Of a stretch of DNA of 54,711 nucleotides, positions 43,598-44,932 are shown one piece after another. The notes under the pieces were generated by a model, which was not told the origin of the DNA, ran no database searches, and saw only the letters and a program-made list of their open reading frames with translations. Made by a program: the position numbers and the translations under genes. Source of the DNA: a virus; IMG/VR virus record IMGVR_UViG_3300028888_000177, positions 1-54,711 of that record; one strand, written 5' to 3'. Each line of letters opens with the position of its first letter. Positions within the stretch are counted from its first letter, which is position 1.

Positions 43598-44335
43598 CTA
43601 ACCTATCCAAAAATTACCACCATTAACAGATGAATATTGAGTATAATTTAATGAATTAAAAATTTCAATCAATTCTTCTTTTGTTTTATTTTTGGCTTTT
43701 ATATAATGTTCTGCTTTGGAATTTGTTACTTCAGATAATTGTTTTACTTTTCCAGAATTGCCGTTAATGGTAAAATCAGCATCTGTTGAGCCACGAGATA
43801 AAAAAGAAAAATCTTCTGATGGAAGTTCTTTTACTTGGCGTAAATTTATATCTCCTGGACGTTTTGTCCATACATAGAATGTACAAGGAACATAATATAT
43901 TTTATCATTTTCTATAATAAAATTAGAATCTGATAATTTATGTTCTACGATTAGACGCCAATCTTTTGGAAAAAGAGTTTCTGATTGATTACTGATTTTA
44001 CTAAAAGTATCTGGTAAAATAAATGCAATAGTTTCTGCTCCAATGGCTCGTGAATGTTTAATAAATGCTTTTGCTAATGAGCTTCTTTGTCCAAAAGGAG
44101 GATTGCCCACCACCAATAAGGATTTTGTATTAACTTTTTCAGTTTTGAGCCAATCTTGTTTAATAATACTGTTATCTTCTGGCTCAATATCATATGCGAT
44201 ACAATTTAACTATTTACTAAAACTTCCATTTCCCGCGCTTGGCTCTATAATTAAAGAATATGAACTTAAATCTGGAATTAATCTAATGCATTCTGCGGCG
44301 ATAGCTGTTTTAGTATAAAATTTATCAATACTCAT
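43598..44335 (-). CDS. N6-adenine/N4-cytosine-type DNA methyltransferase (motif I then motif IV); 1 in-frame TAG
   Basis: AdoMet motif I 'IIEPSAGNGSF' and motif IV 'VVGNPPFG'. ATG 44335 joins ORF 43598..44116 across a TAG. Confidence 0.7.
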
Positions 44336-44338
44336 ATA

Positions 44339-44932
44339 TTACTTCAGCACCCTTCGCTTTAAATCTTCAGAAAGATATTTTTCTTTCCATCTTTTAGTTT
44401 TCTCATTATTATCATTATATATAGGGATAGTGATTGAATACTCTCTATTAACATTATCCTTATTGGCTTCAATAGTTCCATGAGTATATCCACCGCAGAT
44501 AGCAACCTCTTCAATCATTTGATCTTTTGTTAGCTCAAAGAAAATACTTTTATCTAAATCTTTTTCATTAATATAAAAGCAGTAATAAAAATCAATTGGT
44601 TGCCATAATCTTATTTGCCTAATGTTTAAATTTTGATTTTGGTTTGTAAATGAATTTTTAAACTCATAAATTGTTCCATCTTGGTCAATTGCATCACCCA
44701 TATTTTTAGATGCTGCAATTCTTTGGTAATTAAGTTTGTGACAAAGAAATTTTTCTCCTAAAGGCGCCTTTTTTTGGGCAGAAAATGGTGCGATAGTAGA
44801 ATAAAATAAAAAAGCATTGTCACATTCTTCTATCGCAACATTTTTATCTTTGATTGTATTTAATACAGATTGTAATTTTAAAGCATCCTGTAGAATCTGC
44901 TGATTTTTATCGAAAACTTCTTGTATAAGCAT
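44339..44932 (-). CDS. putative PD-(D/E)xK nuclease (candidate restriction endonuclease partner of the methyltransferase)
   Basis: 'GDAIDQDGTIYEFKNSF' fits the D...(D/E)xK spacing. Lies directly upstream of and co-oriented with the methyltransferase. Confidence 0.35.
   Translation of the reverse strand: MLIQEVFDKNQQILQDALKLQSVLNTIKDKNVAIEECDNAFLFYSTIAPFSAQKKAPLGEKFLCHKLNYQRIAASKNMGDAIDQDGTIYEFKNSFTNQNQNLNIRQIRLWQPIDFYYCFYINEKDLDKSIFFELTKDQMIEEVAICGGYTHGTIEANKDNVNREYSITIPIYNDNNEKTKRWKEKYLSEDLKRRVLK

Follow-up and report, generated by a model that had tools for sequence, protein, structure and literature searches.

A candidate type II restriction-modification pair in a large gut phage with TAG recoded to glutamine

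The IMG/VR virus record IMGVR_UViG_3300028888_000177 is a stretch of 54,711 nucleotides, here called the window, in which the minus strand holds every sizeable gene. Two of these genes, which we call R and M, lie next to each other in the same orientation, with 3 nt between the stop codon of R and the start codon of M (Table 1). R encodes a predicted nuclease of 197 amino acids (aa), and M encodes a putative amino-methyltransferase of 256 aa. An initial annotation of this DNA had correctly placed the 197-aa protein directly upstream of the methylase and suspected either a restriction-modification (R-M) system or a methylase without a partner that shields phage DNA against restriction by the host. 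Our analysis suggests that the two genes probably form a phage-borne type II R-M pair, in a phage whose methylase can be made in full only if TAG is read as glutamine.

Two adjacent genes and a reassigned codon

Table 1. Features of the R and M genes and of their surroundings in the window
Feature	Position	Strand	Basis or remark
R gene, predicted 197-aa PD-(D/E)xK nuclease of the PvuII/BisI-like structural group	44339..44932	-	Open reading frame; no in-frame TAG; TAA stop
R stop codon, TAA	44339-44341	-	
R predicted catalytic codon D80	44693-44695	-	
R predicted catalytic codon E90	44663-44665	-	
R predicted catalytic codon K92	44657-44659	-	
R predicted catalytic codons, span	44657..44695	-	
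M gene, putative 256-aa amino-methyltransferase; motif I, then motif IV, then C-terminal target-recognition region	43565..44335	-	Translation, homology
M start codon, ATG	44333-44335	-	
M stop codon, TAA	43565-43567	-	
M motif I (S-adenosylmethionine binding), EPSAGNG, residues 31-37	44225..44245	-	E31, P32, A34, G35 and G37 invariant in 28 sequences
M motif IV (catalytic), NPPF, residues 78-81	44093..44104	-	G77-N78-P79-P80-F81-G82 invariant
In-frame TAG, M codon 42, between motifs I and IV	44210..44212	-	Translation; Q in most homologues
In-frame TAG, M codon 246	43598..43600	-	Translation; Q near-invariant in homologues
Promoter-like site, TTGATT-17-TATAAT	45488..45516	-	Consensus scan; downstream of a strong terminator-like hairpin (45527-45560)
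tRNA, anticodon CTA (amber suppressor), needed for M translation	46416..46490	-	ARAGORN
Second tRNA, anticodon CTA (amber suppressor)	46689..46763	-	ARAGORN

The initial annotation ended the methylase gene at position 43598, which belongs to an in-frame TAG, and it missed that M is translatable only with TAG as Gln. The standard code splits M into a 41-aa piece with EPSAGNGSF (44210..44335) and a 172-aa piece with NPPFG (43598..44116). Past codon 246, the frame of M reads QEILKAYNNR up to the TAA stop. Full-length homologues of M (256 to 264 aa) have Q at both TAG columns, and after the second of these comes a conserved QEILKAY tail.

TAG is a sense codon for Gln throughout this phage (genetic code 15), since the window holds tRNA genes with the anticodon CTA, gains coding coverage when TAG is read through, and has no open reading frame (ORF) that ends in TAG, and since homologues of M have Q at both of its TAG positions. 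Both tRNA-CTA genes are part of a tRNA cluster, and we aligned the first one listed in Table 1 with the tRNA-Gln genes of the same window. The coverage by ORFs of ≥100 aa was 0.658 with TAG as a stop and 0.857 with TAG read through. With TGA, the same treatment gave only 0.683; with TAA, it gave 0.807, mostly via extra plus-strand ORFs (from 3,212 to 8,613 aa). The 57 minus-strand ORFs contain 69 TAGs in frame, or 12.8% of the Gln-type codons. Each of the 57 has TAA or TGA as its stop and none has TAG, and 33 are free of TAG altogether.

In these respects, the window agrees with the published code-15 gut phages (bioRxiv 10.1101/2021.08.26.457843; PMC9523058). Shared features are in-frame TAG in a subset of genes, suppressor tRNAs encoded by the phage, a standard-code host, and variable recoding of replication genes. 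The main text of the code-15 preprint (bioRxiv 10.1101/2021.08.26.457843) mentions neither methyltransferases nor restriction, and an R-M pair in which only M is recoded is not described there. The same locus is present on a 163.7-kb metagenomic contig, k141_4886592 of ERZ27257205, and the phage, a large (~164 kb) gut phage, probably infects Firmicutes. We favor such a host because the window encodes an SLH-domain protein and because the nearest cultured relatives of the primase are from SPbeta-like and Clostridioides phages.

The pair resembles the phage backbone in its G+C content (GC) of 0.31 and in a Gln usage dominated by CAA. The presence of TAG in M suggests a long stay in a recoded lineage rather than recent capture. 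The promoter-like site could drive two tRNA-Lys genes, a tRNA-Cys gene, R and M as a single unit. We noticed no gene for a controller (C) protein beside the pair, although no search was aimed at one. The palindrome statistics of the window gave no specific hint of a recognition site: 4-bp palindromes (CTAG, GATC, CATG, GCGC and GGCC) are generally under-represented. A blastn search of the region against phage records matched a neighboring tRNA only.

A restriction-type nuclease fold beside an amino-methyltransferase

The initial annotation had read a D-x10-ExK arrangement, typical of type II restriction endonucleases, in the upstream protein. The spacing is in fact D-x9-ExK (G79-D80-x9-E90-x-K92), but the arrangement itself holds up. 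G79, D80, E90 and K92 are invariant in an alignment of 36 homologues; together with N103, R108, M139, N160, E164 and T168, they are also invariant in a 12-sequence set that reaches down to 24% identity. We modeled R using AlphaFold with a homologue alignment and obtained a mean predicted local distance difference test score (pLDDT) of 94.6 and a predicted template modeling score of 0.87. The model has the alpha-beta-beta-beta-alpha-beta core of the PD-(D/E)xK nuclease superfamily, in which strand 2 begins with an acidic residue and strand 3 holds the (D/E)xK element. D80 comes directly ahead of a short strand, and E90 and K92 lie within strand 88-95. The motif is not a product of chance: its residues sit, in the model, where a PD-(D/E)xK core expects them.

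We compared the model of R with structures in the PDB. It matched NhoI (score 10.9), the N-terminal domain of Eco15I (8.7), I-Ssp6803I (7.7), ThaI (7.3), PvuII (7.3), NaeI (6.8), DpnI (6.3), MspI (5.5), EcoRV (5.1) and HinP1I (5.1). In a Foldseek search, all matches with a probability above 0.5 (ranks 1 to 27) were to the BisI family, PvuII or DpnI, that is, to restriction endonucleases. By sequence, R had no significant match in Pfam, PHROG or NCBIfam scans, and tblastn of R against 50,697 phage records returned no match. A word-indexed search found 105 relatives of ~200 aa, and an exhaustive profile search found 838 R-family clusters (50% identity) at E ≤1e-3. The nuclease family is undescribed; R-M as a kind of system is already known. 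Scanning the GTDB genomes with R yielded a single contig of a metagenome-assembled genome, binned as Faecalibacterium. The visible genes of this contig are phage-like (a weak GIY-YIG match and extra methylases), and it may be a mis-binned phage contig. Pfam scans of longer R-family proteins showed no known fused domain; the R-M fusion described below emerged only with a custom M profile. One longer protein, P0260 (414 aa), carries two R domains in tandem in a single chain, like engineered single-chain PvuII, which suggests that members of the R family act as dimers.

M has the motif order of a gamma-type enzyme, with motif I ahead of motif IV and a conserved C-terminal half (residues 160-256). 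Both amino-methyltransferase motifs named in the initial annotation are present, the second as NPPFG at residues 78-82. M matched PHROG 5172 (3.9e-52, residues 3-255), the PADLOC MTase_II model PDLC03255 (3.8e-29, residues 4-255), a second MTase_II model (2.4e-26), and PHROG 799, annotated as DNA methyltransferase (8.7e-10). An NCBIfam scan of M gave no match, and the protein collection gives it the precomputed, weak Pfam label PF26055 Mtase_EDM2. We collected 1278 homologues. M is a small gamma-type amino-methyltransferase that would probably target N6-adenine.

In alpha-class (Dam-type) methylases, the target-recognition region lies between the SAM-binding and catalytic motifs. Motif I of M is only ~45 residues ahead of NPPF, a spacing that misfits the alpha-class layout, and Pfam MethyltransfD12 did not match M at E ≤1; M is therefore not Dam-like. 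Catalytic D/E/K residues that are invariant and a methylase that is not Dam-like are the opposite of what the initial annotation had named as evidence against a pair.

For the structure of M, we used the model of an 85%-identical homologue, P0106 (pLDDT 89.5), which has a class I SAM-methyltransferase fold. The fold search with this model confirms an amino-methyltransferase core that would be compatible with either a DNA or an RNA substrate. Because of the full-length PADLOC matches and the nuclease partner, we argue for DNA.

Linkage of the two genes and alternative readings

That the two genes work together is suggested mainly by the linkage between R and a methylase. This linkage is kept in four arrangements: R followed by M, M followed by R, R with a methylase of another class, and a fusion. 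In at least 10 related phage loci, R is directly upstream of a member of the M family, and the two genes often overlap. These comprise L001, which is the same phage; L003-5, L006-8, L009, L010, L015-18 and L027/28, where R is 47-60% identical; and the more divergent L044-46. On a 130-kb bacterial-looking contig (L002), the order is swapped, with M (269 aa, 33% identity, E 6e-36) preceding R (37% identity). Its neighbors there are of bacterial type and include a RadA/Sms-type ATPase (by Pfam domains), an asparaginase and DUF4293. In L019 and L031-33, R (30% identity) has an overlap with the gene for a beta-class N6_N4 methylase that is unrelated to M (CcrM-like, PADLOC MTase_II 1.8e-70). Finally, a T4-like (Gp23) metagenomic contig carries an uninterrupted standard-code ORF of 468 aa (L037:3001-4407) that fuses an R domain (residues 15-196, 3.4e-40) to an M domain (residues 212-466, 3.7e-55). 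This contig also has an N6_N4 methylase gene 900 bp downstream of the fusion. Across the linked loci, R and M co-diverge. The restriction-endonuclease fold, the invariant D/E/K residues and linkage in several arrangements together favor the complete phage-borne pair that the initial annotation had proposed.

Several findings weigh against a cognate pair. In phages, most members of the M family are orphans: R lies within 1.5 kb in 9 of the 54 IMG/VR loci with this family and is missing from the other 45. Cultured phages tell the same story. Pseudomonas phage KIL1, Agrobacterium phage Atu_ph07 and rV5-like coliphages, all annotated in their records with the standard code, encode the same M family at 30-37% identity over nearly the full length and have no R-family gene beside it. 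The orphan, self-protecting methylase that the initial annotation offered as an alternative still carries some weight. R also occurs without M. In the L011-14 lineage (L011:4995-5609, and also L012-L014), a 57%-identical R with intact catalytic residues (GD...ExK) lies in the same tRNA/DUF2828 neighborhood, with a 427-bp gap in place of M and no M within 5 kb; the 192-kb contig of this lineage, IMGVR_UViG_3300024272_001728, is absent from the 54 loci with the M family. A distant R subfamily of 181-185 aa is solitary, with no methylase nearby. The L037 fusion is unique and comes from one low-coverage contig, ctg107631 of ERZ25072740, so an assembly error is possible. Pfam DNA-methylase models stayed below threshold for M (Eco57I, E 0.059). 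The closest structural relatives of R, the BisI family and DpnI, are modification-dependent and not classical enzymes, and the nearest solved folds of the P0106 model are RNA adenine methyltransferases (METTL5, KsgA and PH1948), with template modeling scores (TM-scores) of just 0.4-0.5. Since R is found without the M family, there is room for a modification-dependent nuclease or for some other means of self-protection.

If R were modification-dependent (type IIM/IV-like, of the BisI or DpnI kind), it would act against methylated DNA of the host or of rivals; M would be an unrelated orphan protector, and the adjacency would not be cognate. We consider this unlikely. Two of the best matches, NhoI and Eco15I, are indeed BisI-family enzymes that depend on 5-methylcytosine (5mC) in GCNGC, but classical PvuII, the nearest canonical type II relative of that family, is also among the matches (PMC11347163). 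The PADLOC model for a "Type II methyl-directed restriction enzyme" (mREase_II) matched R weakly (E 0.0095), and it matched just 3 of 36 family members. The R-family profile found no chain among the PDB sequences even at E ≤10, HMMER finds no relationship to the BisI family, and sequence identity to it is 12-15%. The R genes without a nearby methylase (L011-14 and the 181-185-aa subfamily) and the orphan state of M in most phages suit a modification-dependent enzyme. BisI enzymes, however, are solitary, whereas R is habitually beside or fused to a methylase and tracks one in four arrangements.

The match to I-Ssp6803I raises the idea of a free-standing homing, repair or recombination nuclease (I-Ssp6803I-like or Hjc-like) that came by chance to lie beside an orphan methylase. 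This is improbable: such a nuclease would not be expected to track two unrelated methylase classes, to form a bacterial M-R pair, or to be fused to M, and restriction enzymes are both the top structural matches and most of the list.

It is more doubtful still that M methylates adenine in RNA (rRNA or tRNA) rather than in DNA, and that the pair acts on RNA or the two genes have unrelated functions. The best solved-structure matches (PH1948, METTL5, KsgA/Dim1 and Trm11) are in keeping with this idea, as are a weak Pfam RrnaAD match in a homologue and the sequence profile of M, which found only marginal rRNA-methylase matches in the PDB. The pair is also directly downstream of a tRNA cluster, with a Thg1-family gene ~2.5 kb upstream. 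However, the low TM-scores reflect a shared Rossmann core only, the PADLOC type II DNA methyltransferase models match M in full, including the C-terminal region, PHROG 799 is annotated as DNA methyltransferase, and M is linked and even fused to a nuclease with a restriction fold.

Lastly, the two pieces produced by the standard code would suggest that M is a pseudogene broken by stops, with the nuclease alone left; we rejected this as hardly credible, since TAG is sense phage-wide, both TAGs align to a conserved Q, the catalytic motifs are all intact, and relatives carry TAGs at other positions in otherwise intact genes.

Proposed action of the pair and its surroundings

For the R-M pair that we favor, the following course of events can be proposed. 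Phage tRNAs would decode TAG and allow full-length M to be made. M would then methylate a specific sequence in the phage DNA and so mark the phage's own genome. R, which probably works as a homodimer in the manner of PvuII and BisI-family enzymes, would cut that sequence wherever it is unmethylated; we infer that methylation by M blocks R. The host chromosome and co-infecting DNA without the mark would be the targets, and phage DNA would be spared. The methyl mark may also protect the phage from host enzymes of the same specificity. The initial annotation had thought of inter-phage competition; breakdown of the host's DNA is no less likely.

The best-documented analogue is found in the chloroviruses (PBCV-1 type), lytic large double-stranded DNA viruses that encode adjacent methylase and endonuclease genes. 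In these viruses, ~25% of the methylases are accompanied by an endonuclease, and the others are orphans; paired genes are neighbors in every case, and the nucleases are believed to break down the host's DNA soon after infection, within minutes (PMC7019647). The chloroviruses differ in that their host is a eukaryote and the enzymes are unrelated to those described here. Packaging of the endonuclease in virions is known in these viruses.

Among bacterial systems, the closest comparison is to PvuII-type type IIP R-M. M.PvuII is a beta-class N4-cytosine enzyme. Unlike M.PvuII, M has the gamma-type order with NPPF, R has no detectable sequence similarity to PvuII, and the phage uses genetic code 15.

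On a standard-code ribosome, M would be truncated after 41 residues, and it therefore depends on the amber-suppressor tRNAs of the phage. R has no such dependence. This raised the idea that the code is a lock on the pair: R could be made by any ribosome, and M only with the suppressor tRNAs. We regard this as a long shot. Of the Gln-type codons, R has 0 TAG in 13 and M has 2 in 9; for R alone, P is ~0.17. In three recoded lineages (L001, L006 and L009/10/17), a TAG-free R accompanies an M whose two TAGs differ in position, and pooled over these lineages the difference between R and M was not significant (Fisher p = 0.10). The suppressor tRNA genes are just 1.5 kb upstream in the same orientation, so that a gap in timing may not exist. 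If the lock were real, restriction would occur without modification early in infection, or whenever the cassette passed into a standard-code cell or a rival phage. Fast loss of unmethylated host DNA could follow, sparing the already-methylated incoming phage genome, and the cassette could poison standard-code recipients.

If confirmed, the pair would represent a large family of small restriction endonucleases that has so far gone without annotation: Pfam and PHROG give no match, and PADLOC or NCBIfam a marginal one at best. Since this family would come with a recognizable cognate methylase, it could give new specificities. The phage would then be a code-15 phage of gut Firmicutes with an R-M system of its own, likely relying, as chloroviruses do, on destruction of host or competitor DNA combined with self-marking. 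There is also a lesson for annotation. Under the standard code, M is split and looks like a pseudogene, so that surveys for R-M in recoded phages will overlook such systems or call the nuclease solitary.

Downstream of the pair, on the same strand, are an 815-aa major-vault-protein-like gene (38228-40675, minus; MVP_shoulder 3.5e-19, Vault_3 1e-9) and a 513-aa DUF2828/DUF7788 gene (41914-43455, minus). Their GC of ~0.5, against 0.30-0.35 for the phage, their use of CAG only for Gln, and their lack of TAG suggest that they were recently acquired. The DUF2828 gene is a conserved neighbor of the R-M pair in related phages. Upstream of the pair, by the tRNA cluster, is a gene for a Thg1-family tRNA-His guanylyltransferase (47412-48248, minus; 5.5e-26); the gene for the 773-aa SLH-domain protein is at 48340-50661 (minus; 5.9e-22). 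The radical-SAM enzyme (7 TAGs) and the adjoining 231-aa cysteine-rich protein (5 TAGs) at 50680-52506 (minus) are encoded by some of the most recoded genes of the window and look like a peptide-maturation pair.

Elsewhere in the window are two tandem NAD-ligase-like genes (12882-14795 and 14842-16959, minus). The first is TAG-free and has full Pfam ligase domains; the second has a GC of 0.22 and 11 in-frame TAGs, and just its BRCT domain is still recognizable. An SPFH/flotillin-like gene (26880-28358, minus) is compositionally foreign, with a GC of 0.50, 22 CAG versus 3 CAA codons, and no TAG. Outside the window, in L034-L036, a gene that weakly matches S-AdoMet lyase in Pfam comes after the R gene of the 185-aa subfamily (for example, L034:414-971 and 1049-1669). 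SAM lyase of the T3 type has an anti-restriction function.

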